Part shown: positions 25,658-60,791 of the stretch, in pieces | How positions within the stretch are numbered: position 1 is the first letter of the stretch | How the letters are laid out: each line of letters opens with the position of its first letter | Virus record (IMG/VR): IMGVR_UViG_3300021425_002620 | DNA length: 64,000 nucleotides | Direction: 5' to 3' (one strand) | DNA from: a virus | Lineage: Duplodnaviria > Caudoviricetes | Translations under genes and position numbers: made by a program | The notes under the pieces: model-generated | What the model saw: only the letters and a program-made list of their open reading frames with translations | Told to the model about the DNA's origin: nothing | Database searches by the model: none

Positions 25658-26002
25658 ATGGACGAACGACTTAAAAAAGCACTAGAACAAAGCGATCTAA
25701 TGGTTGTTCTTAATCAGCAAAAGCGAATAATCAAAGAGCAATATCAAGCAGACCTAGTACACTATCAAAATGGCTGTCAATTTACAGCAAATCAAGAATT
25801 AATTAGTTTTTGTCAAAGCATGATTCAACTTGGCCAAACACAATCTGTTGTTATAGATAACAACGGTATTCCATGTTTAATTGAAAATCTAGAAAATTTT
25901 GCAACTGATTTAGTTGAAACATATGCAGGTGCAACTAATGGATATTTCAATAAGTACGAAAAATTAAAAAAGCAAAGAAGTGTTGAAGGAATTGTATCAT
26001 AA
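25658..26002 (+). CDS. Hypothetical protein (possibly fibre assembly chaperone-like)
   Basis: 114 aa with clear promoter and SD, immediately after the fibre gene; the function guess rests mainly on position. Confidence 0.45.
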   Translation: MDERLKKALEQSDLMVVLNQQKRIIKEQYQADLVHYQNGCQFTANQELISFCQSMIQLGQTQSVVIDNNGIPCLIENLENFATDLVETYAGATNGYFNKYEKLKKQRSVEGIVS

Positions 26003-26823
26003 TGAATTCAGGTGTACTTGTATTTGCTTACAATAATGAAAAAATCAACTATATAGAGCAAGCAATTTATCTTGCATCTCGCATAAGCAAGTATTTAAAC
26101 TTGCCCACAAGTATTGTAACTGATACTATCAGCAAATTTGACGAAAGTTATTTTGATAAAGTTATAAGAACAGATCCTGCAAAGTATACACTAAAGACTT
26201 ATAATAACGGAACATCTAAAAATCACTCGTTAAGTTTTAAAAACGATAAACGGGTCTATGCTTACGATCTTTCTCCATACGACAATACTTTGTTAATGGA
26301 TACTGATTACATTATTGCTGATAGTGTTTTATCTAATTGTTTTGATTCTTGCTATGATTTTATGATTTATAAAGATGCAGTTGATTTAGCAGGGCATAGA
26401 GACTATTTTGAGTTTGACAAAATAAGCGAAACAGGTATAGACTTTTATTGGGCAACGTGTGTTTATTTTACAAAAACAAAAAAGAATAAAATATTCTTTT
26501 CTCTACTACAGCATATACAAGAAAATTATCAACACTATAGACAAGTGTATCAAATACAAACACCAGTCTACCGCAATGATCATGCTTTTAGTATAGCAAT
26601 TCATATGATGAACGGTTTTGAAAAAAATAATTTTGCAAAGAAAATGCCAGGTACAATGTTCTATACTACTGATAGAGACATCGTATACAGTATCAAGGAT
26701 GACGAATTTAAATTTTTACTAGAAAAAGAAAAAGTGTTGCATGAATATACACCTGCAACAATTAGCGGAAACAGTGTACATGTAATGAATAAATTTAGTT
26801 TAGCAGAGGTAATCAATGGATAA
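26002..26823 (+). CDS. GT-A fold glycosyltransferase (nucleotide-diphospho-sugar transferase)
   Basis: SGVLVFAYN N-terminus; LSPYDNTLLMDTDY with DxD motif. Confidence 0.7.
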   Translation: MNSGVLVFAYNNEKINYIEQAIYLASRISKYLNLPTSIVTDTISKFDESYFDKVIRTDPAKYTLKTYNNGTSKNHSLSFKNDKRVYAYDLSPYDNTLLMDTDYIIADSVLSNCFDSCYDFMIYKDAVDLAGHRDYFEFDKISETGIDFYWATCVYFTKTKKNKIFFSLLQHIQENYQHYRQVYQIQTPVYRNDHAFSIAIHMMNGFEKNNFAKKMPGTMFYTTDRDIVYSIKDDEFKFLLEKEKVLHEYTPATISGNSVHVMNKFSLAEVING

Positions 26824-27670
26824 AAATTTTATCTTAGTTGCTCAAAATACAAAATTTGATGATTATGTAAGACAAGCATGTGTTTGTGCAATGAGTATTC
26901 ATGCAACAAATAAAAATGCAAGCATAGCAATTATTACAGACGACGAAGTTCCTACACAGTATAAACATCTGTTTGATCATATTATTCCCATACCATGGGG
27001 TGATCTAGCAGAAAAATATGAATGGAAAATACACAATAGATGGAAAATTTATTTTGTTTCTCCTTACGAAAGCGCAGTTGTACTAGATACAGATATGTTA
27101 GTACTAGACGACCTTAGTACATACTTTAGTATATTTGAAAATTACGATATATGGCTTACTTCTAATGTATTAGATTACAGAGGAAATCGTGTATCAAATG
27201 ATTATTACAGAAAACGTTTTACAAAGTATAATTTACCAAATACATATTTTGGTTTGCACTACTTTAAGAAAAGTGATTTTGCTCTTGAATTTTACAAGTG
27301 GTTAGATATTATTACTAACAACTGGAAAGAATTTTACAAGTTTGGCAGCAGCACACTAATACAAAAAAATGCTAGTATGGATGTAACATCAGCAATGGTA
27401 GTTAGTATGCTAGGTTGCGAATCAAAAGTCACCAACAGTCAAATAGATGCACCAACTTTTGTTCATATGAAACCAAACATACAAGGTTGGCACGGAGTTA
27501 CTGAAAAGTGGCAAAATAAAATTGGTTCTTATCTAACAGATAACTTAGAGTTGTATGTTGGAAACTTTAAACAAAACGGAATATTTCACTATACTGAAAA
27601 AGATTTCCTTACTGACGACATTGTAAATGCATACAATAATATAATGGATATAAAACATGTTGAAATATAA
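26816..27670 (+). CDS. GT-A fold glycosyltransferase, paralog of the previous gene
   Basis: VSPYESAVVLDTDMLVL with DxD; YFGLHYFKKSD aligns with WATCVYFTKTK of the neighbour. Confidence 0.7.
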   Translation: MDKNFILVAQNTKFDDYVRQACVCAMSIHATNKNASIAIITDDEVPTQYKHLFDHIIPIPWGDLAEKYEWKIHNRWKIYFVSPYESAVVLDTDMLVLDDLSTYFSIFENYDIWLTSNVLDYRGNRVSNDYYRKRFTKYNLPNTYFGLHYFKKSDFALEFYKWLDIITNNWKEFYKFGSSTLIQKNASMDVTSAMVVSMLGCESKVTNSQIDAPTFVHMKPNIQGWHGVTEKWQNKIGSYLTDNLELYVGNFKQNGIFHYTEKDFLTDDIVNAYNNIMDIKHVEI

Positions 27671-28214
27671 AGTATATTTTGAAGAAGACTCTGGAGCAAT
27701 TTTAGCAATAACTAATATTGATCAAGAATATGATAATTTTTTTGAAATAGATTACGAAGATGTTGCACCATATGTTGAAGGCACAAAGACTGTATCTTTG
27801 TCAAAGGTAGTTTACAACATTAATACTTCAGAATATAATATTATATCAAAAGAAGAAAAACTCGAACTATTAATTGACGATCTGATTTATAAAATTACAC
27901 CAAAAGAAAACTATCAGTTAGGAGTTTGGAAAAACAATCCTAAAAAATGTTGGACAATTAACTTGTCAGACTCTTATAGGCAAGATCTTGAAAAAATTAA
28001 AAGCAGGCCAAACCAAAGTTTAATTTTTAGTATTACACAACACAACAATCCTAATATATTGTATAGACATTTTTCATGTATGTTAAATGATCTAATTGAT
28101 AATCCTAGTATTGATTTTGAATATGCAAGCCAAGACGAAGAAGAACTAACAAGATTTAGCGTATATACTAGTAGAAAGTTCGAAAAGTATACATGCGGGG
28201 TAATTGATGGCTAA
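27657..28214 (+). CDS. Hypothetical protein
   Basis: 185 aa ORF overlapping both neighbours; no recognisable motif. Confidence 0.6.
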   Translation: MLKYKVYFEEDSGAILAITNIDQEYDNFFEIDYEDVAPYVEGTKTVSLSKVVYNINTSEYNIISKEEKLELLIDDLIYKITPKENYQLGVWKNNPKKCWTINLSDSYRQDLEKIKSRPNQSLIFSITQHNNPNILYRHFSCMLNDLIDNPSIDFEYASQDEEELTRFSVYTSRKFEKYTCGVIDG

Positions 28215-29100
28215 AATTAAAGTTATTGATCAGGATATTGTTTTCCTGAGCTATGACGAACCGAACGCTGAAAAGAATTATGCAGACCTATGTAGTAAAT
28301 TACCATGGGCTAAACGTGTTCACGGTGTACATGGCAGTGATGCAGCACACAAGGCATGTGCTGACATAGCAGAAACAGAATATTTTGTTACTGTAGACGC
28401 AGATAATATAGTTGATCAAGAGTTTTTCCAACAAGTAGTTGATATTGACGAATTGGGATTAACTCCGGATCATGTGTTTAGTTGGTGCGGTAAAGTTCAT
28501 GTTAATGGGCTAATGTACGGCAACGGCGGCTTAAAAATGTGGACACGTAAGTTTGTACATAATATGAAAACACATGAGCACAGTATAGAAGGCGACGAAA
28601 GAGGAAAAGTAGAATTTTGTTTTGATGACAAATATTATCAGTTTAACGAAAACTTTAGTACAAGTTACACTAACGCAACCCCGCAACAGGCATGGAGAGC
28701 GGGCTTTCGAGAAGGTGTTAAAATGAGTTTAGATCAAGGTGCTCGAGCAACTGATATAAAAAAGGTATACTGGCAAAATTTTGATAGACTAAGAATATGG
28801 TGTTCAGTAGGCGCAGATGTTGAAAATGGCCTATGGAGCATATTGGGTGCTAGAGAAGGACTGTATAAAACAATGTGTAGAGATTGGGATTATGCAGAAG
28901 TAAGAGATTTCGAATGGCTTAATAACTATTGGAAAGAAGTTGAAGCACGTACTTCTGATGTTCAAAAACATATTAAAAAAATAGGTGAAAAAATAAAAAG
29001 AGATTTGGACATTGAGATAGCAGATCTTGATGCAGAAGGATCTAAGTTTTTTAAAGCAGTCTATAATAATACTCCAAGGATAATTAGAAGAGCCAAATGA
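28207..29100 (+). CDS. GT-A-like glycosyltransferase family protein
   Basis: DIVFLSYDEPNA...AKRVHGVHG...AH...VTVDADN (DxD); paralog of the C-terminal domain of 33726..35687. ATG 28207 is preferred over TTG 28204. Confidence 0.6.
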   Translation: MAKIKVIDQDIVFLSYDEPNAEKNYADLCSKLPWAKRVHGVHGSDAAHKACADIAETEYFVTVDADNIVDQEFFQQVVDIDELGLTPDHVFSWCGKVHVNGLMYGNGGLKMWTRKFVHNMKTHEHSIEGDERGKVEFCFDDKYYQFNENFSTSYTNATPQQAWRAGFREGVKMSLDQGARATDIKKVYWQNFDRLRIWCSVGADVENGLWSILGAREGLYKTMCRDWDYAEVRDFEWLNNYWKEVEARTSDVQKHIKKIGEKIKRDLDIEIADLDAEGSKFFKAVYNNTPRIIRRAK

Positions 29101-30482
29101 ACAACGAGCTAATACGTATAAAAGAAATTATGCCAAAGGTAGAAGCCCAAACTTCTCCTACATTTTGTTTGGCTAAATGGCACCATACTACGATCTATTT
29201 ACAAACAGGTGAAACACATAGTTGTTATCACCCTGCCCCTCATAAGATTCCGCTTGAAGGTTTAGATACCAATCCAAGTCAGTTACACAATACACCTGAG
29301 AAGAAGCAACAACGCAAACAAATGTTACAAGGTGAAAAACCTAGCGGCTGTCAATATTGTTGGAATATAGAATGCATGGGCAACGATTATGTTAGTGACA
29401 GGCATATAAAAACTTCAAGTATTTACACTGAAGAACGTATGAAGGAAATAAAAACAAATCCTTGGAACTTTGATGTAAATCCGGAATACATAGAAATTAA
29501 CTTTTCAAACGAATGTAATTTTAAATGTGGATATTGTCACCCTAAATTTAGTAGTCGATACTATAATGAAATTAAACAATTTGGCCCTTATAAAGATAGC
29601 ACAGAACATCGTAATGATATTGATTGGTTCGAGCTTTATGAAGAAGATGAAAATCCTTATGTACGTGCATGGTGGGAGTGGTGGCCTGAGGTTAGTAAAA
29701 CACTAAACATATTGCGTGTTACCGGCGGCGAGCCCTTAATGCATAAAAGCACTTGGAGATTGTTACAAGAACTAGAACAAAATCCTAAGCCACATCTTAA
29801 CATTGAAATGAATAGCAACATGGGTGTCAAAAATAGTTTAGTTGTTAAACTAGTAGATAAAATTAAACATTTAAAAGAAACTGGGTGCATTCGAAGTTTT
29901 AAATTGTATACAAGCATTGACACATGGGGACCTCGTGCAGAATACACACGTACTGGTTTAGATATAGAGCTTTGGGAAAAGAACTTAGACTATTATCTAA
30001 GTAATACAGGGTGGCCTGTTACATTTATGATTACATTTAATTTGTTTGCAGTGACAAGTTTTAATTTGTTACTAGAAAAGATATTAGAGTGGCGAACAAA
30101 ATATAATACAGATGATAATGAAACTCAATGGCAGCGTGTACGTTTTGACACACCATATCTAAAAGAACCATTACAGTTTGATATGAATATTCTTCCTAAA
30201 GACGAATTTATGCCGTATATGCACAAGCACTTAGAGTACATTAAAAACAATATGGATGACGCAGACCGTACTAAGTTTAGTTCGTTAGAGTATGAGCGTT
30301 TTAGACGTGTTGTAGACTATATGCAAAACACAATTTATGATGACGAAAAACTTTTAAAAGGCCGCAAAAATTTCTATACATGGTTTACAGAATATGACAA
30401 TCGTAGAAATACAGATATAGTTGAAGTATTTCCAGAATTAGAAGAATTTTATGAGGAATGTTTTTTATGCCTAAGTCATTAA
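29097..30482 (+). CDS. Radical SAM protein with N-terminal twitch-like Cys domain
   Basis: CNFKCGYC (CxxxCxxC) and VTGGEP; N-terminal FCLAKW...HSCYH...GCQYCW. Confidence 0.85.
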   Translation: MNNELIRIKEIMPKVEAQTSPTFCLAKWHHTTIYLQTGETHSCYHPAPHKIPLEGLDTNPSQLHNTPEKKQQRKQMLQGEKPSGCQYCWNIECMGNDYVSDRHIKTSSIYTEERMKEIKTNPWNFDVNPEYIEINFSNECNFKCGYCHPKFSSRYYNEIKQFGPYKDSTEHRNDIDWFELYEEDENPYVRAWWEWWPEVSKTLNILRVTGGEPLMHKSTWRLLQELEQNPKPHLNIEMNSNMGVKNSLVVKLVDKIKHLKETGCIRSFKLYTSIDTWGPRAEYTRTGLDIELWEKNLDYYLSNTGWPVTFMITFNLFAVTSFNLLLEKILEWRTKYNTDDNETQWQRVRFDTPYLKEPLQFDMNILPKDEFMPYMHKHLEYIKNNMDDADRTKFSSLEYERFRRVVDYMQNTIYDDEKLLKGRKNFYTWFTEYDNRRNTDIVEVFPELEEFYEECFLCLSH

Positions 30483-31735
30483 ACTTTATGTATGAATGGA
30501 TAGGACCAAAAGGACCTCTTACTAATAATAGACTGCCTACTATTGCAGACTTTTCCTATGCACAATTTAGATATAAAGAAAAAGATTATTCACAAGATCC
30601 GTTTTTTTATGAAATGTTTAACAACTACAATATTGTTCCTATATTTAGTACTAATAAAGATTTGATAAATTTGTATGAAATAAATTTTAGTGGTTATCAT
30701 TATCGAGACTGGACTAGAATTATAGAAGATGCATTTTCACAAGGCAACAAAATTATAGAAAAAGCAATAAATTTTAAAAAAAATTATATAGTAGTCACAA
30801 TTCCTTTTGAAGGATGGGTACATGATAAAATGTTTGATATGTTGTATACACAATTTAGTAAACATAAAATTCCTTTAGACCGAGTAATATACGTATCTAA
30901 TTGTCAAAATGTTCAAGAAATGCATATTGCTTACTGTAAAGAAAGGGGAAAAGATGCGTTATTAAATGTAGAGTATATTCCAACTTGTAGAATACAACAA
31001 ACAGGAGTTGAAGAACCGTTGCGAGAAAGAAAAAACACTCCTTATGTTCCTGGACCTAGAAAAAAAGATTTTCTGTGTTTCCAGCGTCGATGGAGTGATC
31101 ACAGACTAGTGTTCTTTTTAAGTATGTGGCGTAAAGGACTATTGGATAACTTTTATATGAGTATGTCTGATAAACAACCTGAATCAGGTGCAAGTTTTGA
31201 AAGCAATATGAAGCATGTTGCAAATCGTCGCCCTATTTTTCAAATTACAGACGATGAAATTGAAAAATCTAAACAAGCTCTTCCTCTTATTTTAGACACT
31301 ACTAATTTTGACAGGTATCCAATGGAGTCAAGTGCTAACGATGTTCAACAATACTATAAAGACTCTATGATTAATATTATTAGTGAAACAAATTTCTTTA
31401 CTCCAGAAATACATTTAAACGAAAAAACCTACAAGCCAATAGCATTTAAACAACCTTTTATAATGATGTCTGCGCCATATAGTTTGCAGCATCTCAAAGA
31501 TGTTGGATTTAAGACTTTCGATCGTTGGTGGAGTGAAGATTACGATTTAATAACAAACAATGATGATCGCATGTTAGAAATAAATAGCATAGTAGAAGAA
31601 ATTACCAACTGGAGCGACGAAAAGAAAGTACAGTTTACGCACGAAGTAAAAGATATTGTTGAATTTAACTGCGAACATCTAGCAACAATGTCGCATCCAG
31701 AAGTTAAACATTTTGAGGAAAAATATGGAAACTAG
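30467..31735 (+). CDS. GT10/fucosyltransferase-like glycosyltransferase
   Basis: FLCFQRRWSDHR...YKDSMINIISET...LNEKTYKPIAFKQPF...GFKTFDRWWSEDYD resembles the GT10 Y..YL.FEN..Y.TEK donor-binding motif. ATG 30467 fits SD GAGGA spacing better than 30458. Confidence 0.5.
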   Translation: MPKSLNFMYEWIGPKGPLTNNRLPTIADFSYAQFRYKEKDYSQDPFFYEMFNNYNIVPIFSTNKDLINLYEINFSGYHYRDWTRIIEDAFSQGNKIIEKAINFKKNYIVVTIPFEGWVHDKMFDMLYTQFSKHKIPLDRVIYVSNCQNVQEMHIAYCKERGKDALLNVEYIPTCRIQQTGVEEPLRERKNTPYVPGPRKKDFLCFQRRWSDHRLVFFLSMWRKGLLDNFYMSMSDKQPESGASFESNMKHVANRRPIFQITDDEIEKSKQALPLILDTTNFDRYPMESSANDVQQYYKDSMINIISETNFFTPEIHLNEKTYKPIAFKQPFIMMSAPYSLQHLKDVGFKTFDRWWSEDYDLITNNDDRMLEINSIVEEITNWSDEKKVQFTHEVKDIVEFNCEHLATMSHPEVKHFEEKYGN

Positions 31736-32699
31736 AAAAGTATTAGTTTGTGGCGCAGGCGGATTTATTGGCGCACATTTGGTAAAAGACCTTAAAGATA
31801 GAGGTTTTTATGTTATCGGTGCCGATCTAGAGCATCCTAAGTATGCAGAAACAGCCGCTGACGAGTTTCATATTGCGGATCTAAGAGATCAGTATGAAGT
31901 TGCTCAACTAGTAACTAATGACTTATATGAAATATATCAGCTTGCTGCGGATATGGGCGGAGCAGGTTATATCTTTACAGGCGAAAATGATGCTGACATT
32001 ATGCATAATTCGGCAACTATCAATCTAAACATTGTAAATGAAATGGTTAAGAAGGGAGTTAAGCGAGTATTTTATAGTTCAAGTGCTTGCATGTATCCGC
32101 AACAATTACAAACAGGTGATGTTGCAGATCCTTCTCTCATCGAAAGTCAAGCATATCCTGCAGATCCAGACAGCGATTACGGTTGGGAAAAATTGTTTAG
32201 TGAAAGATTGTATCTAGCATATGCACGTAACTACGGGCTACACGTAAGAATCGCTAGGCTTCATAATATATACGGTCCTGAAGGATCATGGAATAATGGT
32301 AAAGAAAAATCTCCAGCAGCACTTTGTCGTAAAGTAGCAGAAAGCGAAAACGGAGAAATTGAAGTATGGGGACCAGGAACACAAAAAAGAACATTTTTGT
32401 ATATTGACGAGTGCATAAAAGGCATTGATCGTATTATGAATGGTTCGTATGAGTACCCGTTAAATCTTGGTAGTCAAAGAATGATATCAATCAATGACCT
32501 TGCATATATGATTAGCAGTATTGCCAGAAAAAATATTAAAATTAAAAATACAGACGGACCTCTTGGCGTAATGGGCAGAAGAAGCCATAACGGTTTAATT
32601 AAAAAGAATATAGGTTGGGCACCTGACGAAGATCTAGAGTATGGATTGAAGAAAACATACGACTGGATATTGGAGCAAGTGCGGAATGCGGCTACCTAA
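31725..32699 (+). CDS. GDP-mannose 3,5-epimerase-like NAD-dependent epimerase
   Basis: GAGGFIG; LAADMGG; YSSSACMYP; YGWEK; HNIYGP; GKEKSPAALCRK, matching plant GME catalytic Cys/Tyr/Lys motifs. ATG 31725 follows SD GAGG. Confidence 0.85.
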   Translation: METRKVLVCGAGGFIGAHLVKDLKDRGFYVIGADLEHPKYAETAADEFHIADLRDQYEVAQLVTNDLYEIYQLAADMGGAGYIFTGENDADIMHNSATINLNIVNEMVKKGVKRVFYSSSACMYPQQLQTGDVADPSLIESQAYPADPDSDYGWEKLFSERLYLAYARNYGLHVRIARLHNIYGPEGSWNNGKEKSPAALCRKVAESENGEIEVWGPGTQKRTFLYIDECIKGIDRIMNGSYEYPLNLGSQRMISINDLAYMISSIARKNIKIKNTDGPLGVMGRRSHNGLIKKNIGWAPDEDLEYGLKKTYDWILEQVRNAAT

Positions 32700-33708: not shown

Positions 33709-33719
33709 GGCTGTATAGT
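33691..33719 (+). promoter_or_regulatory. Sigma70-type promoter TTGACA-N17-TATAGT
   Basis: TTGACA 33691-33696, TATAGT 33714-33719; ATG 33726 lies 6 nt after the -10 box (predicted +1). Confidence 0.75.
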
Positions 33720-33725
33720 AATAAG

Positions 33726-51404: not shown

Positions 51405-52213
51405 TAATAATGTTCCAATTCGCTTACACCTAAAATTTTACGGAACTCATCTGTAAACTCGCCATCTATTCTTAGAGCATAACTTTGTTCCATAATGCGA
51501 TCACCTCCGTGCCAATCTTGATCATTCCACCAAGCAGCTCGAGTATTTAAGTATGTTTTATTCTTAGTTTCAGGATCCCATATATAAAAAGGTTTTTTAG
51601 TATTAGGTCGAATATGTATAAATTCGTTCTTGTGTGGAAAACTTTGATTCATGCCATTTTTAGCATCTAAGTCTCTATGCTCAAATGGAATACCGTCTGC
51701 ATCGCAATGGAAGAAAATAACTCTACCAATATGTTTAAATATTTTTTGGTCAATTAAATTTTCAACCCACTTTACTGTTTTAGGAAAATATTTTGCTTCT
51801 TCAGTTAACGTTCTTTCAGCTGTTCTATCATCCCAACTACCTTCTTCCCATAAAAAATAATAAATGTAAGGATCGTATGCTCCCATAGCCATTTTTAAAA
51901 AACGAGTAAAAATATTACGCTGTTTATAATCACTAAAGTCTTGTGGCATAATTTTTGCCCCAGCTTGTTTGATAGGATCGTCGTCGGATAATTGCTGCCA
52001 TTCTTGTAATGCTTGGTATATAGGCTTCCAGTTGTGAATATAGCTCATGTTTTCAAATGTAAATCCTGGAGTCATCCAAGTTGCTTCTTTTGCATATTCT
52101 CTTGCTAGTGCAAATCCTGTTATAATTTCTGGCTGCAATTTTTCAAATCCGTCCATGTCAATATATTCTTCCATATCAAAATATGGTATTCCGTTAATTC
52201 CTCTATTTGCCAT
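51404..52213 (-). CDS. 2OG-Fe(II)-type oxygenase
   Basis: PFEHRD...WWNDQDWHGG...ALRIDG. Confidence 0.6.
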   Translation of the reverse strand: MANRGINGIPYFDMEEYIDMDGFEKLQPEIITGFALAREYAKEATWMTPGFTFENMSYIHNWKPIYQALQEWQQLSDDDPIKQAGAKIMPQDFSDYKQRNIFTRFLKMAMGAYDPYIYYFLWEEGSWDDRTAERTLTEEAKYFPKTVKWVENLIDQKIFKHIGRVIFFHCDADGIPFEHRDLDAKNGMNQSFPHKNEFIHIRPNTKKPFYIWDPETKNKTYLNTRAAWWNDQDWHGGDRIMEQSYALRIDGEFTDEFRKILGVSELEHY

Positions 52214-53255: not shown

Positions 53256-54306
53256 CTTTAGTATATTTCCTCGGTATTGTATCTAATAAAGGTTTTCTTT
53301 CGTTTATAAATCTATCTCTCAATATAACCTGATGTAATAGCGGACTCATAGGTTTATGTGGTATTAAATTAGCCCAACTCTCACTTTGTGTTTCTTCTAA
53401 GTCTATAGTTTTTACGTCACACCATTTTATAAATCTGTGGGTAACTCCATTGATGTATACTGCAAAATGAGTTCTATTAGATATTTCAGGTGCTTCTATC
53501 CAAGTATAACCTTTTTTAATACATAAATCTTTTGCACACTTGACTAAGTCTGACAGATAATATTCTCTATGATCGCCGTCTGGCGTTCTACCAATATCTA
53601 CACCTACTTGTATTCTTGCTTCTTGTGCAATGCCCTTTGAATACCAATCTTGCATTTCGTCTAAAACATAACTTAATTGATCTAAATCGCCTAAGGTGTA
53701 AGTAAGATTTTTAATTCTTAGTCCTAAATCAATACAATTTTTTATACCTGTTTCTTGTTTTTCTCTAATTACACCGCCGTTATAGTCTGGATGGTTAAGT
53801 CCTATAGTCCATGTTAAATTTTTAAATGTAGTAAATTTTTTAGCATAAGCTATTTTTCCAAGATTTATACCATTAGTGACAATCATTAACCATCTTTCTT
53901 TTCTTGGTAATAAATTTATTTTTTCTATAATTGTAGGCAAATCTCGTCTTGTAGTTGGTTCTGCACCTACAAGTGCTACAGCCTTTCCGTCGTCGTCCCA
54001 AGACATTATTTGATTGAGTATCCAACTTACTGTAGGATCTTTAGACAAATTGTCCGGCATTTGGTAGCAGTGAGGACAGTCTAGATTACAACGATTAGTT
54101 ATATCTAACCAATATGAACTAGGATGTCTTTTTTCGTACACTTGTGATTTATAAAATTCTGCATCTATCTCTACAAGAGATTCATGATAACCATGCTCAG
54201 GACATGTTTTGCCTAACCATATTTTGTTTCCTCTTTCAAATTTAGTAGCAAGTACATGTCTATAGCAATGTTCGCACATTGATAAGGTATCTGTTAACTT
54301 TGTCAT
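53221..54306 (-). CDS. Radical SAM protein with N-terminal rubredoxin-like CX2CX20CX2H site, tandem paralog
   Basis: TLSMCEHC...KTCPEHG; LDITNRCNLDCPHC; VGAEPT. Confidence 0.8.
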   Translation of the reverse strand: MTKLTDTLSMCEHCYRHVLATKFERGNKIWLGKTCPEHGYHESLVEIDAEFYKSQVYEKRHPSSYWLDITNRCNLDCPHCYQMPDNLSKDPTVSWILNQIMSWDDDGKAVALVGAEPTTRRDLPTIIEKINLLPRKERWLMIVTNGINLGKIAYAKKFTTFKNLTWTIGLNHPDYNGGVIREKQETGIKNCIDLGLRIKNLTYTLGDLDQLSYVLDEMQDWYSKGIAQEARIQVGVDIGRTPDGDHREYYLSDLVKCAKDLCIKKGYTWIEAPEISNRTHFAVYINGVTHRFIKWCDVKTIDLEETQSESWANLIPHKPMSPLLHQVILRDRFINERKPLLDTIPRKYTKDGLPDINVISV

Positions 54307-54334
54307 TAATCTCTCATATTTCAGTTATATAGTA

Positions 54335-54351
54335 TATTTATTGGATAAATT
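54335..54351. promoter_or_regulatory. Divergent late-type boxes (ATAAATA on - at 54335-54341; ATAAATT on + at 54345-54351)
   Basis: 67-bp divergent intergenic gap; both flanking genes have SD-like GAGAG/GGAG. Confidence 0.5.
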
Positions 54352-54373
54352 ATAATATAACGGAGAGATTGAT

Positions 54374-55051
54374 TTGTACAATTACTATTACAATGATGTT
54401 CCTGGCATTGGACTTTGTAGAAATAATTTAATATACACAAGTCTTGCAAATAAAGAGTTGACAAAATTTATCCAGTGGTATTTTAACGACGGTGAATATC
54501 ATAAAGGACAAAATCAAGTTGTAGACCCTAAACTAATGCAAGAAAAGTTTGATAGAGAAGTTAAGTACCTATCATTAATGCATACTAATTATCCTGAATT
54601 AGTTCCTAACTTTTACGCAGATGTATCTGAAAGAAAAATTTATTTAGATATTGACGGTAAAGACTTTTGGAATCGTGCAGGATGTTTAACAGAAAATTAT
54701 GATAATGTGTTACCTGATTGGCAAGATCAAATGTTAGAAATAATAAAGGCACACAAAAGTTTAGGACTGCACAAGTATAGTATGCATCCGTCAAGTTATT
54801 TTGTTGTAGACGGAAAGTTAAAGAGTATGAATTACTTTTTTACATATCATGAATCAGAACCATGTGTAAGTATTGCAGATGTAGAAAGTCACATATACAG
54901 TACACGTCAAGATGAAATGCGTAAACATTTAGAAAGTTTAGGCATTGAATGGAATAAACCACAGCCTTGGGAAGTAATGGACAAATTGTGTTGGAATAGT
55001 TTTAGAACAAATTATCCATCAGACTTTATAGAGAAAGCACTTAATGTATAA
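54374..55051 (+). CDS. Protein kinase-like fold protein (degenerate), paralog of 49065..49760
   Basis: KFDREVKYL; LPDWQDQM vs LPNWKDQL; HKYSMHPSSYF vs YKLALYPHCFF; TTG start after SD GGAG. Confidence 0.5.
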   Translation: MYNYYYNDVPGIGLCRNNLIYTSLANKELTKFIQWYFNDGEYHKGQNQVVDPKLMQEKFDREVKYLSLMHTNYPELVPNFYADVSERKIYLDIDGKDFWNRAGCLTENYDNVLPDWQDQMLEIIKAHKSLGLHKYSMHPSSYFVVDGKLKSMNYFFTYHESEPCVSIADVESHIYSTRQDEMRKHLESLGIEWNKPQPWEVMDKLCWNSFRTNYPSDFIEKALNV

Positions 55052-55601
55052 AATAATACCTTGGAATAAAGATTTAGATTTAACAAATTTTTACAAAGAA
55101 GCCGAAAAGCGAGGCTTTGAAAATAATGCCTCTCAGCATATGCTAGTAGATTGCTTTCGAAAAGAAACTAAATGGAATACATGGATATTGTACTACAACA
55201 ATGAAGCAGTTGGAAGTGTGGCAGCACATAGTTTTGATGATGTAATGGGTCCTAACACATATCGTGTTGCTGCTAGGACCTGTGTGTTTACAGATAAACT
55301 ACCTTTAGTTAGTTTAAGGACACGCAATCAAATTATTACACATCAACATGCTACATCACAGTTTTTAATACCTGCTTGCTTAGAATGGTTACCACAGGAT
55401 GCTAGAGCATTTATTACGTCTAATGAAAATGAAGCAGGAACACAAAGAATTGTACATCGTATATATGGACCTGCAATGGAAAAAAGCGGACAAATGAAAC
55501 GAGTTAAAGATGTATACTATAGAGGCACTAATCAAACAGTATGGGAAATCTTTCCTGATAAGTTTTTTGAAGAATTAAATAAACATCCTAGATGGAGGTA
55601 A
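55044..55601 (+). CDS. GNAT-like acyltransferase
   Basis: WILYYNNEAVGSVAAH...YRVAARTCV...LIPACLEW...AFITSN fits GNAT strand order; no strong motif A. Confidence 0.4.
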   Translation: MYKIIPWNKDLDLTNFYKEAEKRGFENNASQHMLVDCFRKETKWNTWILYYNNEAVGSVAAHSFDDVMGPNTYRVAARTCVFTDKLPLVSLRTRNQIITHQHATSQFLIPACLEWLPQDARAFITSNENEAGTQRIVHRIYGPAMEKSGQMKRVKDVYYRGTNQTVWEIFPDKFFEELNKHPRWR

Positions 55602-55604
55602 GTT

Positions 55605-56345
55605 GTGCAAGAGAGTGCAGAAGAATTTTTAAAACAGTTAAAGAACGATTTGCATAGATATATTGATGCATTCAAAGAGAAAACTAGAGATTTTAAAGTA
55701 GGTCATATAGAAGATATTGATAAGTTTTTTGACGAATATTTAGGAAAACTATTTGATAATAAAACCGACCAAAGAATTTTTGATTCTATCAAAACTTTAA
55801 GGTTTCTCGAGCCACATCATGTAGATAACTGTAAAGCAATACTTGATCGTATGAGTTTACTAGAACAACTACCAAAAAATGCTGTAGTAGCAGAAATAGG
55901 TGTTGATAGAGGTCGGTTTGCAGAACGCATATACGAAGTAACACAACCACGAAAGCTACATCTTATTGATATTTTTCAATTTGATTATCAATTAGAATCA
56001 ATAAACAATATACTAGGCAAAAAAGAAAACATAGAGATACATCAAGTAGACTCTGCAGAAGCAGGAAATTTGTTTGATGACGATTATTTTGACTGGATCT
56101 ATATAGATACTGATCATACATATGAAAGAACTAAAGCAGAACTAAATGCATTTGCAAATAAAATTAAACCAGGAGGTTATATATCAGGTCACGACTACTT
56201 TCAAGTTGGTATATCAAACGGGTTTTCATACGGTGTAATGAGTGCAGTACACGAGTTTGTAGTTATTAATGACTGGAAACTATATGCAGTTACACTAGAA
56301 CCTTTAGAAAATCAAAGTTTTGTTATACAAAAGCCAAATAACTAA
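55605..56345 (+). CDS. Class I SAM-dependent methyltransferase (Methyltransf_24-like)
   Basis: AEIGVDRG; LHLIDIF; FDWIYIDTDHTYE; KPGGYISGHDY. Confidence 0.85.
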   Translation: MQESAEEFLKQLKNDLHRYIDAFKEKTRDFKVGHIEDIDKFFDEYLGKLFDNKTDQRIFDSIKTLRFLEPHHVDNCKAILDRMSLLEQLPKNAVVAEIGVDRGRFAERIYEVTQPRKLHLIDIFQFDYQLESINNILGKKENIEIHQVDSAEAGNLFDDDYFDWIYIDTDHTYERTKAELNAFANKIKPGGYISGHDYFQVGISNGFSYGVMSAVHEFVVINDWKLYAVTLEPLENQSFVIQKPNN

Positions 56346-57106
56346 ATCTTATAATACTCTAAAGTTTCAATATTATCCCATATCTGCTCGCCCATTGTAT
56401 CGCATGTTCTATTGAACTCGTCGACAAACTTAAACACATTATCAACAGGAAGTGTTTTTAATATGTCTAATCGTGCGTTCCACCATTTTGTTTCTAAAAG
56501 CATTTCTTTTACTTTATCGGGAAATCTATCTCTAATAATTTTATTTACTCCACCTACAATAGTATAAGGTGAAACATCTTTAGTAATTACAGCGTTAGCA
56601 GCAATAACAGCACCGTTGCCAATCGTAACACCTGGCATTACAATAATGTTGTCGCCTAGGTATACATCATTACCTATTATAACAGGGCGACCGTTCATTT
56701 CTTTTACATCTGTTTGACTTCTACTAATGTTTAGCATAGCAAGTTCTTTGTCTGTATAATTACTCTGGTTAGCCATTATAGTATCTGGATTAATACTGAC
56801 GCCTGAAAAGTTATGCATACCAGCAGCAATAGTACAGCGATATCCTATACCACTATGTCTGCCCATAAAAAAGTTATCTCGCATATAACCACCATCTCTA
56901 ATACTAGAATATGCTCCGATAAAGATTGTATTTGGTTCGGAAGTAAAATTAGGACAATCAACCTTACAGCCTTTTTCAAATAAAATATTATTTAAAAATG
57001 AAATATTCTCTGTACGTATTTTATGTTCTTCTGTTGTAGTTATGGTTTGATCTGCAGATAATTTCTTTTGTTTAAAGGATTCTAATTTATCTTCTATACC
57101 TTTCAT
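56342..57106 (-). CDS. CatB/Vat-like hexapeptide-repeat O-acetyltransferase
   Basis: PVIIGNDVYLGDNIIVMPGVTIGNGAVIAANAVITKDVSPYTIVGG. Confidence 0.85.
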   Translation of the reverse strand: MKGIEDKLESFKQKKLSADQTITTTEEHKIRTENISFLNNILFEKGCKVDCPNFTSEPNTIFIGAYSSIRDGGYMRDNFFMGRHSGIGYRCTIAAGMHNFSGVSINPDTIMANQSNYTDKELAMLNISRSQTDVKEMNGRPVIIGNDVYLGDNIIVMPGVTIGNGAVIAANAVITKDVSPYTIVGGVNKIIRDRFPDKVKEMLLETKWWNARLDILKTLPVDNVFKFVDEFNRTCDTMGEQIWDNIETLEYYKI

Positions 57107-57111
57107 AAATC

Positions 57112-57119
57112 TATTTATA
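57112..57119 (-). promoter_or_regulatory. Exact T4 late consensus TATAAATA, 5 nt before ATG 57106
   Basis: Minus strand reads TATAAATA-GATTT-ATG. Confidence 0.7.
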
Positions 57120-57132
57120 AAAAAACAGGCAG

Positions 57133-57139
57133 ATAAATA
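57133..57139 (+). promoter_or_regulatory. Late-type box ATAAATA, 5 nt before ATG 57145
   Basis: ATAAATA-TAATT-ATG; back-to-back with the minus-strand box in a 38-bp gap. Confidence 0.7.
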
Positions 57140-57144
57140 TAATT

Positions 57145-57705
57145 ATGGACTGGACAAAAATTAAAGCAGCTACTATTGATTTAGATGTTGATACAAACCG
57201 ATTAGAAAATGAATTAAAGAATATCCCTAACGATCGATGGGGTTCTTATATTCACCAATCGGGTCATGAATGGAAGAGTATGTTCATTAACAAAAATTCT
57301 ACAGAAGTTTTTAAAGATTTTAAAACTGCTAAAATGATACCCCATAGCGATTGGTATTGGGATGAAACTTTAGACACTCCGTATTTAAAAGAATTAGTAG
57401 AGTCGTTACCTATGAAAAATATTGGCATGATTAGGGCATTTATTTTAAATGGTCCTCTTGTAATGCATACAGATAGTAACGAAACTACTCCAGTTGAATT
57501 AAATTATAATTTAGGTTTAACCATTGCAACTAAAATGGAAGGTCCTATGCAAATGGCCGGCTGTGGACCTATTGAAGGTTATAATGTATTGTTTAATGAT
57601 TCTATAGAGCACGGATTTCCAAACGGTGTTGGCGAGCAAATTAGTTTAAGAATATTTGGAGATTTTGACTACGATAAATTTAAGGTAACACGCATATATG
57701 AATAG
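57145..57705 (+). CDS. 2OG-Fe(II)/Asp-Asn beta-hydroxylase-like oxygenase
   Basis: LVMHTD...FNDSIEHG...SLRIFG. Confidence 0.65.
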   Translation: MDWTKIKAATIDLDVDTNRLENELKNIPNDRWGSYIHQSGHEWKSMFINKNSTEVFKDFKTAKMIPHSDWYWDETLDTPYLKELVESLPMKNIGMIRAFILNGPLVMHTDSNETTPVELNYNLGLTIATKMEGPMQMAGCGPIEGYNVLFNDSIEHGFPNGVGEQISLRIFGDFDYDKFKVTRIYE

Positions 57706-58153
57706 TATAATTAAAAAATCATCTATTTTAGACTTTACAAAAGAAAGTCTGTTTGTTGTAGAACAAGAGTTTACAAACGAATTTATGGGAATGACCCTTC
57801 AACGTGCAGTAACTAAAAATTTAAAACTTCTAGATATAGAAGAATTATCTCCAATTAGAGAGTACATTTTAAGTTGTATTCCTGGATACGAGTTTATGGG
57901 CAGCTGGGCATCTAAGATTGATCCGGGAGTTGGTGCAGGAGAACACATTCATCCTGATGCTGATGTTTCGGGTACAATATGTCTAAGCATTAATGAAGGA
58001 ATCATATATCACCATGTAGAAAACATTGTAAGGAAGGAAATTTTATATCCTAACGATTTAATATTCTGGCCGTCAAATATTGTACATTCTGTACCAATTA
58101 ACGAAAATGAAAATCCTTGGTATAGTATTAATTTTGATTTAAGGAAAGTTTAA
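57698..58153 (+). CDS. Putative 2OG-Fe(II) oxygenase (TIGR02466-like)
   Basis: EHIHPDADVSGTICL...LIFWPSNIVHSV. Confidence 0.75.
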   Translation: MNSIIKKSSILDFTKESLFVVEQEFTNEFMGMTLQRAVTKNLKLLDIEELSPIREYILSCIPGYEFMGSWASKIDPGVGAGEHIHPDADVSGTICLSINEGIIYHHVENIVRKEILYPNDLIFWPSNIVHSVPINENENPWYSINFDLRKV

Positions 58154-58599
58154 TGTATCTAGAATATCTTGACTTACCTAAATTATCAGCAAATTTAATA
58201 GAAAACGTATATGAGACAGTCAAAACTAGTAAAAAATATACTAGTCAAGGAAACACAGATGCCGAAAATTATGAACACTTTACAAGTATAGATGCTAGTA
58301 ATGAATTAAAAAAATTTACTCAAAGCATTTTTGATTTTGAACATCTCACCCATATATTTTTTTTAACAGACGATTTACCTATGCATATTGATAATCTTGA
58401 TGTAAGAAGTAAAGCCTATAATTATGTTATCGAGTCCGGCGGCGGAAACACTAACATTTATAATCAAAAAGCAGAACTAATAGAATCTTATGATATTGAT
58501 TTACATCGTTGGCATATATTAGATGTTTCTCAAAACCATAGTGTTTCAATACCTAACCCTCCAAGGATATTAGTTACAGTAACGCCAATAAAAGGTTAA
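58153..58599 (+). CDS. 2OG-Fe(II)-type oxygenase
   Basis: LPMHID...WHILDVSQNHSV...RILVTV. Confidence 0.65.
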   Translation: MYLEYLDLPKLSANLIENVYETVKTSKKYTSQGNTDAENYEHFTSIDASNELKKFTQSIFDFEHLTHIFFLTDDLPMHIDNLDVRSKAYNYVIESGGGNTNIYNQKAELIESYDIDLHRWHILDVSQNHSVSIPNPPRILVTVTPIKG

Positions 58600-58602
58600 A
58601 TT

Positions 58603-60129
58603 ATGCATAATAACATAAAAAATATAACAATCGTTGGAGGTGGTACAGCAGGTTGGTTAGCAGCAGCCTGGTTTTCTAAATTTAATAAAAACTTAAAAAT
58701 AACACTGATTGAATCTCCTACTATTCCGCCTATTGGAGTAGGTGAAGCAGTTACTCCGCATGTTGCTATATTTTTTGAAAAACTTGGAATAAATGAAAAA
58801 GACTGGATGAAACATACAGGCGCAGTCTATAAGTATGCTAATAAATTTGTAAACTGGAATACTAACAAAAAAAGCGAATATTCTAGTTTTAATTATCCAT
58901 TAAATAGCTCTGTTTTGTTACGTGATATAGATCACGGATTAAATACTGATGATTTTATTACAAATGATATTAATACTGCTGATACATTTATGCACTTGTT
59001 AGCAACTGGAGAAATAGATAAATTTGACAAGTATTTTCACAGCCAATTCCCTTACATGGAAAATAATGTTGCTCCGTTTGATAACAATGATTATTTACTC
59101 AATAAAAATTATAGCTGGAGTCAGCATATAAACGCAGAACTAGCAGCTGAATATATAAGAGATAATGTTGCTATTCCTAATGGTGTAGAGCATATAAAAG
59201 CTAATGTTGCTAAAATTGTAAAAACTAATCAAGGCATTGACAAACTAATTTTAGATAATGGATCTATTAACCATGCAGATTTTTATATTGATGCTTCTGG
59301 CTTTAAAAGAATTTTAGCATCAGAATTAGAATGGAATTTTAAAGAATACAAAAACCAACCAATTAGATCTGCTTGGGTTTCGCAAACAGATTACAATGAT
59401 ATTGAATCTGAATTAGTTAACTATACACAAAGCATTGCTGAACCATTTGGATGGAGATTTAAAATAGGATTATATCACCGAATGGGTAATGGTTATTCTT
59501 ACAGTCCAGACCATTGTAGTGATGACATAGCTAAAGAATATTTTTTAAATCAATTATCAAATGTAAAAACTACTCCAAGAAAACTATCTTGGACTCCAGG
59601 AAGATTTGAAAATCCACTACAAGGTAATGTTGCAACTATAGGATTAAGTATTGGATTTATAGAAGCATTAGAAGCTACATCGCTTTTAATTATTACAGAA
59701 AGTATTAGAGAATTAAGTGAAGTCTTAAACAACAAAATGACTGTTGAAGAATTTAATAATCATACCAATAGAAAATTTGATATTATTGCTGATTTTATTT
59801 TGGTGCATTATACTTTAAGTGACAGAACCGATACTGAGTTTTGGAAAGATATGCATGAGCTTGGTAAAAAAGAAAATCATGCCGACTTAGTGTATGAATA
59901 TTTTAAAAAGTTAAAGTTTGGCCAAGGTAATGTGTTTCCTGATTTTATGTGGGGGCAAGTTGCACATAGTTGGGGACAAAATTTAGACAAATGGATTTTA
60001 GATTCTAAATATAAAGATTTAATCGATTTAACTAAACTACACTATACTAATAGTAAATGCAAACATGAGATTGTTAGTAGGTCGCGTTTAACAAATTACA
60101 AATGGCTTACTCGATATATCTATAACTAG
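58603..60129 (+). CDS. Tryptophan halogenase-like flavoprotein
   Basis: IVGGGTAGW; IGVGEA; YKYANKFVNW (catalytic-Lys region); FYIDASGF; GFIEALEAT. Confidence 0.85.
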   Translation: MHNNIKNITIVGGGTAGWLAAAWFSKFNKNLKITLIESPTIPPIGVGEAVTPHVAIFFEKLGINEKDWMKHTGAVYKYANKFVNWNTNKKSEYSSFNYPLNSSVLLRDIDHGLNTDDFITNDINTADTFMHLLATGEIDKFDKYFHSQFPYMENNVAPFDNNDYLLNKNYSWSQHINAELAAEYIRDNVAIPNGVEHIKANVAKIVKTNQGIDKLILDNGSINHADFYIDASGFKRILASELEWNFKEYKNQPIRSAWVSQTDYNDIESELVNYTQSIAEPFGWRFKIGLYHRMGNGYSYSPDHCSDDIAKEYFLNQLSNVKTTPRKLSWTPGRFENPLQGNVATIGLSIGFIEALEATSLLIITESIRELSEVLNNKMTVEEFNNHTNRKFDIIADFILVHYTLSDRTDTEFWKDMHELGKKENHADLVYEYFKKLKFGQGNVFPDFMWGQVAHSWGQNLDKWILDSKYKDLIDLTKLHYTNSKCKHEIVSRSRLTNYKWLTRYIYN

Positions 60130-60791
60130 ATTGTCTTCCAAGTATTGCCAGTTGCTTGTTCTCGTCTTGCATGGAAAGTCATTGTCTGCATATTAAAGAT
60201 ATCACCTGTTGAAAAACCATTTATAATGCATTCTGCTAAATGAGATGATGCATTTACTGGGTTAAACATTACGTGATGTTTATCTGCATTAACTGTAGTT
60301 ATATCAAACTTGCTTGAGTTATAACCTATAAATACAGGCGGCGGAAACTCTGTCATACCGTACCAGTTAGCAACAGTGCCAACACCTTTGCTTTTAAAGT
60401 CATCTATCATTTCTTGTGGAACTGGACCGCTTCCTGTAACCATGTATCTTACACAACTCATATCTAAGTCGCGCCATTCGTTATGTTCGGATAATATCTC
60501 CCAATGCCTAGGAATAAGTGCTATATAAGTTGGTTGAAACTCTTTGAACTTTGCTATATAATCTATAGCTTCGAACTTAGCACTTATAAGATTTGCTTTT
60601 GCTAGATAAGCAGGAAACGCAGTTACAGTATAATGTGCTATTGTATTTCCTGGAAATACATCTAGAACTCTGTCGTTGCTTGTAAGCCCTATTTCTTTAA
60701 TAGACAATCTTGCTAGTTCTTCTATCTCGTCCCAGCTGTGTGCAACCTTCTTAGGTGCCTTAGTGGTACCTGATGTAAGTAATGTTAGCAT
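60126..60791 (-). CDS. Minimal AMP-binding (ANL-family) adenylating enzyme
   Basis: TSGTTKAPK (A3), YGMTE (A5), STGD (A7); only 221 aa. Confidence 0.7.
   Translation of the reverse strand: MLTLLTSGTTKAPKKVAHSWDEIEELARLSIKEIGLTSNDRVLDVFPGNTIAHYTVTAFPAYLAKANLISAKFEAIDYIAKFKEFQPTYIALIPRHWEILSEHNEWRDLDMSCVRYMVTGSGPVPQEMIDDFKSKGVGTVANWYGMTEFPPPVFIGYNSSKFDITTVNADKHHVMFNPVNASSHLAECIINGFSTGDIFNMQTMTFHARREQATGNTWKTI

Follow-up and report, generated by a model that had tools for sequence, protein, structure and literature searches.

A radical SAM-rich enzyme island bordered by an Mtd_N tail-fibre gene in aquatic jumbo phages: a conserved core with variable arms and a possible role in virion tailoring

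The 64,000-nucleotide stretch of the IMG/VR record IMGVR_UViG_3300021425_002620 (Duplodnaviria; Caudoviricetes), hereafter the window, carries at positions 25658-60791 an island of 40 open reading frames (ORFs, from the ORF list of the window), among them 11 genes for radical S-adenosylmethionine (rSAM) enzymes. The genes, designated below by the first of their coordinates, are tightly packed in a window of about 33% GC: overlaps occur at 30 of the 40 ORF junctions (the flanking fibre gene being counted in), and the non-coding sequence across the island totals 294 nt. This bears out a preliminary description of the DNA, which had reported about 40 contiguous and mostly overlapping genes with no room for the precursor of a ribosomally synthesized and post-translationally modified peptide (RiPP); with so little non-coding sequence and so many overlaps, no intergenic precursor gene fits. 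The flanks are likewise as reported there, with a DUF285 protein (21745-25596) on the left and, as the right border, a tail-fibre gene on the minus strand (60853-62016) identified by the Pfam family Mtd_N. Neither precursor nor carrier nor transporter genes are found among the 40 island ORFs, and none of the 40 products contains a transmembrane-like segment, so that all of them look soluble. The only small gene of the island, 25658 (114 amino acids, aa), has no homologue in the core-bearing loci searched, its position in one long relative (G002) not having been sampled. Pfam and NCBIfam scans recovered no leader-recognition (RRE/PqqD) domain, protease or exporter among the island proteins; membership among the RiPP clusters was rejected for want of these and of a co-encoded precursor.

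The island is a composite of a conserved core and variable arms, and not the single 35-kb unit of the preliminary description. Scanning IMG/VR with the B12-type rSAM protein encoded by 46348, itself represented by 418 clusters in a large protein collection, recovered 69 loci at 78-88% identity, each taken with flanks of 10 kb to either side. Analysis of these by tblastn and all-against-all clustering defined a core of about 20 kb (35644-55601) with 13 families and ten rSAM genes, which is syntenic in more than 50 IMG/VR contigs. In a near-fixed order it runs from the rSAM gene 35644 (r356) through a 36627-like gene, the rSAM gene 38324 (r383), an rSAM with an N-terminal twitch domain (N-twitch), two rSAMs with a C-terminal GWxC tail (GWxC), another N-twitch gene and a PP-loop ATPase (or a 283-aa protein) to a cupin, after which come the B12-rSAM, a kinase-fold protein, cupins, the cupin-like X514 (51404), one or two Tes-like rSAMs, another kinase-fold protein and a 55044-like gene. 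Most core families were found in 48-63 of the 69 loci (r356 in 48, the 36627-like family in 63), and the X514, Tes-like, PP-loop and 55044-like families in 28-39 of them, many loci being cut by contig ends or by the 10-kb flank. Relatives gain or swap genes for TauD, Asp_Arg_Hydrox, GDSL-like and methyltransferase proteins. The slot between the N-twitch gene and the cupin 45689 is occupied in 33 loci by the PP-loop ATPase and in 35 by the unrelated 283-aa protein (L001-L069), which has no Pfam match; the two mostly alternate, standing side by side in a few loci (e.g. L024), and the displaced PP-loop gene turns up again after the 55044-like gene.

The arms (25658-35644 and 56342-60791) were seen in close relatives only, the loci with 10-kb flanks not having sampled them. 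The relative G002 (85.7 kb) keeps the left arm at 23-58% identity and the right arm, from 56342 onwards, at 50-72%; in L003 the Methyltransf_24 gene is all that is present of the right arm and directly abuts the fibre gene, and the closest record, G001, spans 20 kb and does not include the island. Co-occurrence conserved among relatives, which the preliminary description had left to be checked, thus holds for the core across viral contigs and for the arms in a close relative. CheckV assigns the 60-86-kb relatives a completeness of 16-24% (24% for the 85.7-kb contig), from which genomes of about 350 kb are estimated for the clade; two of its contigs, P0089 and P0091, reach 270-286 kb. DNA nearly identical to the window occurs in sequencing runs from 14 studies, with the labels seawater, marine and wetland, so that an assumed freshwater origin was dropped; in ten of the runs half or more of the sampled words are present, and four samples may be the source of the window DNA.

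The left part of the core has a cellular counterpart. Scanning one prokaryotic genome per species with an N-twitch alignment recovered 79 loci, almost all of them in metagenome-assembled genomes of the predatory Bdellovibrionota, where a single genome often has several and contigs reach 5.4 Mb; the N-twitch identities are at most 47%. As in the phage island, homologues of several families are clustered here, namely of the GT-A glycosyltransferase (GT)-like gene 28204 (31-44% identity), 36627 (33-41%), r383 (about 35%), r356 (49-54%), N-twitch (43-47%) and GWxC (at most 36%); unlike it, these multi-rSAM islands are chromosomal, have more N-twitch paralogues and are without an Mtd_N fibre within 10 kb to either side. 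Within the same distance X514, the small cupins, the kinase-fold proteins and the Tes-like pair are absent from the bacterial loci. Most of the 148 non-module neighbours in the bacterial islands are unannotated (one context, L152, offers no informative Pfam labels at all); Glycos_transf_2 (GT2) is the commonest Pfam family with 5 of the 148, and further neighbours include B12-rSAM, Asp_Arg_Hydrox, GNAT, methyltransferase, carbamoyltransferase and NeuB genes. A tree of r356 separates 26 phage from 20 bacterial sequences by a single branch with 100/100 support, and therefore the sharing of the module is old and does not reflect recent transfer. Judged by sequence similarity, the left core part together with the GT-A gene thus appears to be a cellular module common to this phage clade and Bdellovibrionota. 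A 108-kb contig binned as Gammaproteobacteria MED685 (NHFT02000004.1; L115/L149) contains 12 island homologues in one co-directional row, adjoined by genes for a carbamoyltransferase, a 776-aa GFO_IDH_MocA-rSAM fusion, a Nucleotid_trans protein, an epimerase, a PNP_UDP_1 protein and a zf-CHCC mini-protein; this contig could be viral and mis-binned.

By contrast with this shared module, the right core part (the B12-rSAM, the Tes-like pair, the Asp/Arg-hydroxylase-like cupins and the kinase-fold proteins) was found only on viral-type contigs and is phage-specific to that extent. More distant B12-rSAM relatives at 30-44% identity make up about 200 representative clusters (E <1e-30), and all the contexts opened for them are phage-like and without cellular marker genes. 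In one lineage at 44% identity, two 2-oxoglutarate (2OG) oxygenases, an Mtd_N fibre, an Asp_Arg_Hydrox gene and further genes are followed by a Tes-like rSAM, the B12-rSAM, a 268-aa protein, small proteins and more rSAMs. The Mtd_N fibre stands at the same island edge in the window and in relatives (L002-L004, L157/L158, G002 and G003). A second IMG/VR scan, with X514 as the query, found 390 further viral stretches, from which 80 loci were kept: an Mtd_N N-terminus is present in 30 of the 80, always on the same side and 1.7-9.3 kb from X514, or in 27 of the 59 that have at least 9 kb on that side, and at least two of the Mtd_N-negative loci, G002 and G003, do possess the fibre, at a distance of 11-13 kb. 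The fibre link holds across considerable divergence; because fibre synteny is inherited, the X514 loci are not independent observations of it. In G003 (L155, 4190-8649), diverged paralogues of the B12-rSAM (39%) and X514 (35%) lie on the same strand directly downstream of an Mtd_N-type fibre gene and may form a fibre-enzyme operon with it.

Parts of the island also share a putative promoter element with the structural genes. The heptamer ATAAATA occurs 15 times on both strands of the window, against about 60 occurrences expected by our composition estimate, and ten of the 15 lie at most 60 nt upstream of a start on the same strand. Five of these precede structural genes (14290, 18899, 21745, the fibre gene 60853-62016, at 44 nt, and 62998-63246) and five precede island units, namely 35644/35656 (box at 35634, the likely start of r356 being the ATG at 35656), 45633 on the minus strand (6 nt upstream), 54306 on the minus strand (29 nt upstream), 57106 on the minus strand and 57145 on the plus strand. 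The element is hence about fourfold rarer than base composition predicts and almost confined to positions just upstream of starts, a depletion and placement that suggest selection against spurious late promoters. As an A-T box just upstream of structural genes and rare elsewhere, it fits the placement of the T4-type late promoter (TATAAATA), and by analogy with the T4 late box TATAAATA the boxed units would be expressed late. The left arm is instead opened by a sigma70-type promoter (TTGACA-N17-TATAAT, read directly in the plus strand at 25600-25657), and a second one (TTGACA-N17-TATAGT, plus strand, 33691-33725) precedes 33726. The late-type box that the preliminary description had attributed to several blocks is borne by five island units, the left arm having sigma70-type promoters in its place.

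Sequence profile analysis placed exactly 11 island proteins above the Pfam PF04055 cut-off, all with the CX3CX2C motif (29097, 35644, 38324, 39403, 40791, 41745, 42803, 43701, 46348, 52203 and 53221), in agreement with the number first proposed. They fall into five architectures: N-terminal twitch, GWxC-tail, r383, B12-type and zinc-ribbon. The N-twitch proteins are encoded by 39403 and 43701 (minus strand) in the core and by a third paralogue in the variable left arm (29097-30482, plus strand, CX3CX2C), and match NF033640 (N_Twi_rSAM) with 403, 332 and 324 bits, respectively, against a curated cut-off of 170 bits. Pfam SPASM regions (residues 21-99 and 10-70) precede the Radical_SAM domain (153-335 and 123-286) among these proteins, and in the alignment of the N-terminal domain C21, C39, C96 and C99 are invariant and C40 nearly so. 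Twitch-domain rSAM enzymes acting on carbohydrates are established, as in BtrN and HygY, with which the N-twitch proteins share an rSAM core and one auxiliary-cluster domain amid sugar enzymes; they differ in the N-terminal position of the auxiliary domain in the N_Twi family, and no specific sequence relationship is detectable. An invariant C-terminal W-x-C...C...C...C tail unites four paralogues, r356 (35644) and the GWxC-tail proteins 40791, 41745 (minus) and 42803 (minus). The core begins with r356 (Pfam Radical_SAM) and 36627, a 202-aa class-I-methyltransferase-like protein (together 35644-37235, plus strand), and goes on to a block of six rSAM genes in mixed orientation (38324-44972; Pfam and NCBIfam), namely r383, two N-twitch and three GWxC-tail genes, a family that recurs in about two copies per locus in 57 loci. 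Between them lies the 357-aa ORF 37213 (37213-38286, minus strand), which has no family match and no homologue in the 69 relatives; its lack of conservation makes a recent insertion probable, although it may not be a gene at all.

The 514-aa product of 46348, which follows the Asp/Arg-hydroxylase-like cupin 45689 (45689-47892 together, plus strand), is a putative B12-like rSAM of the class-B type and the most conserved protein of the island at the 78-88% identity given above. Its residues 24-353 align with the PhpK model, at 58 bits where the cut-off is 600; the Pfam scan gave no B12-binding match to it, and PF02310 is weak or faint in two relatives (P0121 and P0126). A tandem pair of zinc-ribbon (HMPTM/Tes-type) rSAMs (52203 and 53221; 52203-54306, minus strand) combines the zinc ribbon PF23545 (50.6 and 51.3 bits, cut-off 27) with a Radical_SAM domain. 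In having this ribbon N-terminal to the rSAM core they are like the Tes/MJ0619-type proteins; the archaeal Tes/TrsS models are 441-486 residues long against 350-361 aa here, and the phage proteins form a tandem pair in a phage. Tes or TrsS equivalog identity was rejected at 70-74 bits against cut-offs of 450-490, with about 100 residues aligned. The B12-type and Tes-like rSAMs have no tblastn match in 50,697 isolate phage records, and a megablast search of the isolate phage collection with 10 kb of the sequence gave no match. Distant N-twitch or GWxC-type relatives occur at up to three places per genome in cultured jumbo or T4-like phages (Ralstonia phage RsoM2USA, Vibrio phages K566/K567 and Campylobacter phages CP21/CPt10), which could serve as laboratory models for these two families.

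Other core proteins were assigned with differing success. The preliminary description counted ten cupin or 2OG-oxygenase-fold proteins: six of these stand, with 45689 just below the Pfam cut-off for Asp_Arg_Hydrox, 57698 a 2OG-FeII_Oxy_5 protein, 51404 and 49757 in viral Asp/Arg-hydroxylase-like clusters of the ESM atlas and 48488 and 50284 their paralogues, and four depend on reading by eye, 50775, 57145 and 58153 having the HxD...H motif only and 47889 no clear cupin motif on such a reading. Most of them lie in a mixed-orientation block at 47889-52213 delineated by clustering, the ESM atlas and alignments: cupins 48488, 49757 (minus) and 50284 (minus), cupin-like 47889 and 50775 (minus), the kinase-fold protein 49065 and the highly conserved, 269-aa cupin-like X514 (51404, minus). 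Profile searches of the PDB with X514, the small cupins, 36627 and 55044 gave nothing useful, and the GNAT-like label once given to 55044 was abandoned after neither Pfam nor PDB profile searches matched it. This 185-aa conserved protein and the second kinase-fold protein, 54374, close the core (54374-55601, plus strand). The two kinase-fold proteins (49065-49760 and 54374-55051), kept in 52 loci, are modelled with a predicted local distance difference test (pLDDT) value of 94 and in Foldseek match Ark1, Bud32/PRPK and eukaryotic protein kinases at E-values of 3e-6 to 3e-5. The fold thus stands, but not activity as kinases: in our alignment reading the catalytic loop is (H/Y)K(Y/L)..., without Asp or Asn, and among 28 aligned sequences there is no invariant Asp, the Asp at the DFG position being found only in the 49065 subfamily. 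Given this loss of the canonical catalytic residues, the pair may be scaffolds, pseudokinases or atypical enzymes. The PP-loop ATP pyrophosphatase 44956 (44956-45633, minus strand) has the SGGxDS motif (S17, G19, A20, D21 and S22 invariant and G18 nearly so in 20 homologues) and a C-terminal CxxCxxC. A QueC identity was rejected, since PF06508 gives 17.7 bits against a cut-off of 22 and the profile of the 44956 family matches only generic PP-loop regions (in NAD synthetase, TtuA and ThiI, E >=0.07); the former QueC-like ATPase is best described as a PP-loop ATPase with a Cys tail.

The left arm is rich in GT-like genes, four of the six initially recognized being supported. Its first part (25658-28214, plus strand) encodes the 114-aa protein, two GT8-like proteins (26002-26823 and 26816-27670) and a 185-aa protein; none of these matches Pfam or PHROGs, and their homologues in G002 are 31-55% identical. 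A profile of the GT8-like pair matched glycogenin (GT8) alone, at E 2e-4, with an invariant DTD; a single-sequence PDB search with 26816 gave nothing useful, and hhalign found no relation of this family to that of 28204. The product of 28204 (28204-29100, plus strand) is predicted to be a GT-A fold glycosyltransferase-like protein with a DxD motif, from an AlphaFold2 model (pLDDT 91) whose top 50 Foldseek matches are mostly GT-A glycosyltransferases with a few nucleotidyltransferases (E about 1e-4, TM-scores 0.3-0.4), including SunS/ThuS, BcsA, WrtF, TarP, SpsA and PBCV-1 A64R; D67 is invariant and D65 nearly invariant in the alignment. The second part of the arm (30458-35687, plus strand) contains 30458, the epimerase 31713, 32686 and 33726. 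In the 653-aa protein 33726 the C-terminal domain matches a homologue of 28204 (from L154) at E 3e-28, and the N-terminal part appears by eye to contain an internal repeat; 30458 and 32686, the two GT candidates that did not hold, belong to virus-only clusters of the ESM atlas, where GT10 is a lead only (0.79) and the label is unconfirmed. PHROGs gave no match for nine left-arm and unclassified proteins. Pfam confirmed 31713 as an NAD-dependent nucleoside diphosphate (NDP)-sugar epimerase/dehydratase (Epimerase, E 1.5e-41).

The right arm (55605-60791, mixed strands) comprises Methyltransf_24 (55605), a hexapeptide acyltransferase (56342, minus), a 2OG/cupin-like trio (57145-58599), a flavin-dependent Trp-halogenase (58603) and an AMP-binding protein (60126, minus). 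Here the preliminary labels held well: Pfam supports 56342, first labelled an O-acetyltransferase, as a hexapeptide acyltransferase, the halogenase-like flavoprotein is recovered at E 2e-90 (PF04820, 304.6 bits, residues 7-456) and has homologues of 27-33% identity in cyanophage and pelagiphage records, and the minimal adenylating enzyme is a 221-aa AMP-binding core fragment; of the two methyltransferases 55605 is supported and 36627 rests on motifs. Between 60126 and the fibre gene, a hairpin (GCCAAT...ATTGGC) with a T-run (60792-60852) looks like an intrinsic terminator that would part the fibre transcript from the AMP-binding-fragment gene. At the far left of the window an ORF of more than 4,755 aa (1-14268, plus strand) runs off the window start; next come a gene for a tail-collar-domain protein (14910-17009) and further structural genes. 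The giant ORF may encode a VrlC-like giant structural protein, and no match to it was found in the related loci fetched.

The above-described architectural and contextual observations allow some inferences regarding function. Conserved, translationally coupled and soluble enzymes point to one cytoplasmic pathway whose substrate is not the product of a small gene. A plausible if tentative reading is that this pathway, largely late in infection, assembles and heavily tailors a sugar or glycan that is probably meant for a virion protein. A sugar is favoured because the sole module shared by phages and cells has a GT-A enzyme adjoining its rSAMs, because GT, epimerase, carbamoyl- or acyltransferase and NeuB-type functions abound in the arms and among the bacterial neighbours, and because of the established carbohydrate chemistry of twitch rSAMs; the adjacency to the fibre, together with the late-type boxes, suggests a virion protein as the destination of the product. 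Along the following lines we infer which substrate is used (a sugar), how each step proceeds, when the pathway acts and which acceptor it serves (the fibre). The oldest part, consisting of the GT-A enzyme, the methyltransferase-like protein and four SPASM/twitch-type rSAM families, would be a sugar-directed module, to which the phages would have joined the B12-rSAM, the two Tes-like rSAMs, the Fe/2OG cupins and the two atypical kinase-fold proteins, with the swappable arms adding the GT8-like proteins, the NDP-sugar epimerase, the acyltransferase, the methyltransferase and the halogenase. Nucleotide-sugars or a nascent glycan would be made and then transferred by the GTs; the rSAM paralogues could remodel the sugar in many radical steps by C-H activation (epimerization, dehydration, C-methylation or C-C coupling), the cupins could hydroxylate the product, and O-methylation, acylation and possibly halogenation could follow. 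In the late phase of infection a virion protein would receive the product, the Mtd_N fibre at the island edge being the most plausible acceptor.

Several observations weigh against this reading. The island contains no nucleotidyltransferase or sugar-phosphate enzyme. Asp/Asn beta-hydroxylases, which the cupins resemble, have proteins or lipid A as their substrates, and a set of SPASM/twitch and B12 rSAMs with a Trp halogenase would be just as typical of a peptide-tailoring pathway. The GT2 genes are few among bacterial neighbours that mostly lack annotation. As for timing, only 6 nt separate three of the island ATAAATA boxes from the start codon, a spacing odd for a promoter that needs room for a ribosome-binding site, and the GT arm has sigma70-type, not late-type, promoters. 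The RNA record consists of a few contigs of 150-270 nt from two metatranscriptomes, one of them matching perfectly inside the B12 gene, all of which may stem from DNA carry-over; beyond these short contigs no run contains the stretch as RNA. Finally, a hypervariable 'host recognition' region (PMC7029224) common to both, along with inherited synteny, may be all that underlies the fibre adjacency. Thus, of the virion glycan or post-translational modification layer envisaged in the preliminary description, the conserved core, the late box, the glycan-type enzymes and the fibre link speak in its favour, and a virion protein is a candidate target.

The main rival to a tailored sugar, which we consider unlikely, is that the Mtd_N fibre or another structural protein is itself hypermodified at the level of its residues, by the rSAMs, the B12-rSAM, the cupins, the halogenase and the kinase-fold proteins, with no glycan intermediate. 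Proteusin/polytheonamide tailoring, which this would resemble with a full-length protein as the substrate, employs an rSAM epimerase, B12-rSAM C-methyltransferases and a Fe/2OG hydroxylase, and the island has the same combination of enzyme classes and could likewise install many modifications by soluble enzymes. The rSAMs, B12-rSAM, Asp/Asn-hydroxylase-like cupins and halogenase are all peptide-tailoring classes; with no small precursor gene, a large protein encoded nearby is the natural candidate, and the fibre is always on the same side, is directly followed in G003 by the X514 and B12 paralogues, and shares late-type boxes with island units. Moreover, the best GT-A structural matches of 28204 are the peptide S-glycosyltransferases SunS and ThuS. 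The proteusin systems, however, possess the precursor gene, leader-recognition domain, protease and transporter that the island lacks, no RRE/PqqD-like domain having emerged from the Pfam scans; the left module in Bdellovibrionota occurs amid GT2, carbamoyltransferase and NeuB genes with no recognized fibre gene, and direct modification leaves the GT, epimerase and acyltransferase genes unexplained.

Remodelling of the host surface (lipopolysaccharide, O-antigen or capsule), directed against superinfection or the sticking of progeny to lysed cells, is rather improbable, even though GT- and rSAM-bearing clusters beside pelagimyophage fibres have been read in this way (PMC7029224). It would accommodate the GT8-like enzymes and the epimerase, as well as the sigma70-type and presumably early promoters of the GT arm, and the Bdellovibrionota homologues could serve their own envelope; but all 40 products are soluble and include no polyprenyl-phosphate transferase, flippase, polymerase or ligase, five island units bear the box common to structural genes, and a lytic jumbo phage would gain little from 20 kb of late surface change.

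We give a quite low probability to a modified nucleoside or small molecule, that is to DNA or tRNA hypermodification or a nucleoside-like metabolite made via the PP-loop ATPase, the AMP-binding fragment and the rSAMs. The QueC-like Cys tail of the PP-loop ATPase and the PNP_UDP_1 gene in the related L149 cluster would suit such a product, as would the distant rSAM relatives in Campylobacter T4-like phages. These phages have modified DNA. Against it, the PP-loop protein falls below the QueC cut-off with generic PP-loop matches only and gives way to an unrelated protein in about half of the relatives; the island contains no transglycosylase or nucleic-acid-binding domain, and it lies among fibre genes and not replication genes. 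A random gene dump, in which auxiliary genes unrelated to one another would have gathered in a hypervariable region without serving a common product, is disfavoured and highly improbable. The arms do differ among relatives, lineages do differ in gene order and the non-conserved 37213 has been inserted in the core; but 13 families keep a nearly fixed order across contigs at 45-80% protein identity, six of the families are linked in bacteria too and the gene overlaps suggest translational coupling.

The contention that no characterized pathway has this make-up agrees with our searches, with the qualification that rSAM cassettes in fibre-linked regions have been noted before. The hypervariable, fibre-side host recognition cluster of pelagimyophages and cyanomyophages bears GTs and rSAM cassettes (Zaragoza-Solas et al. 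2020, PMC7029224), and a T4-like marine viral genome with 12 rSAM genes has been described (PMC5332604). These regions are reminiscent of the island in combining GTs, 2OG oxygenases, halogenase-type genes and rSAM cassettes beside tail fibres; they differ in that only gene presence was noted there, whereas here a 13-family core is mapped, and in a different phage clade. Glycans are placed on mycobacteriophage capsids and tail tubes by phage GTs (Freeman et al. 2023, as cited in PMC12619734); like the PBCV-1 enzyme A64R (PDB 2p6w), these offer a parallel in soluble virus-encoded GT-A enzymes that could decorate structural proteins, but those systems use one to few GTs without rSAM, cupin or halogenase tailoring, and in the present one virion glycosylation is a candidate function. 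The 'moraphage' paper (PMC12619734) was considered as a description of the island and set aside, radical SAM not being mentioned there. New in the present analysis are the phage core as defined above, with its cell-shared and phage-specific halves, the constant fibre boundary, the fold-level tests and the dichotomy of promoters.

In conclusion, it is possible, if doubtful in its full form, that in a widespread clade of marine and brackish jumbo phages at least ten rSAM enzymes and their oxygenases build a hypermodified glycan or residue-level modification on the Mtd_N fibre and so tune host recognition, by a sugar-directed rSAM chemistry shared with Bdellovibrionota and without characterized precedent. 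If this is true, abundant uncultivated aquatic phages devote about 6% of an estimated 350-kb genome to an uncharacterized radical-chemistry pathway, with five rSAM architectures that have no assigned reaction. Such a pathway could bring to light novel radical reactions on carbohydrates or proteins and a novel means by which phages diversify or protect their receptor-binding proteins. It would account for the rSAM cassettes that have long been known from fibre-linked hypervariable regions in marine myophages, and would amount to a new kind of virion maturation.

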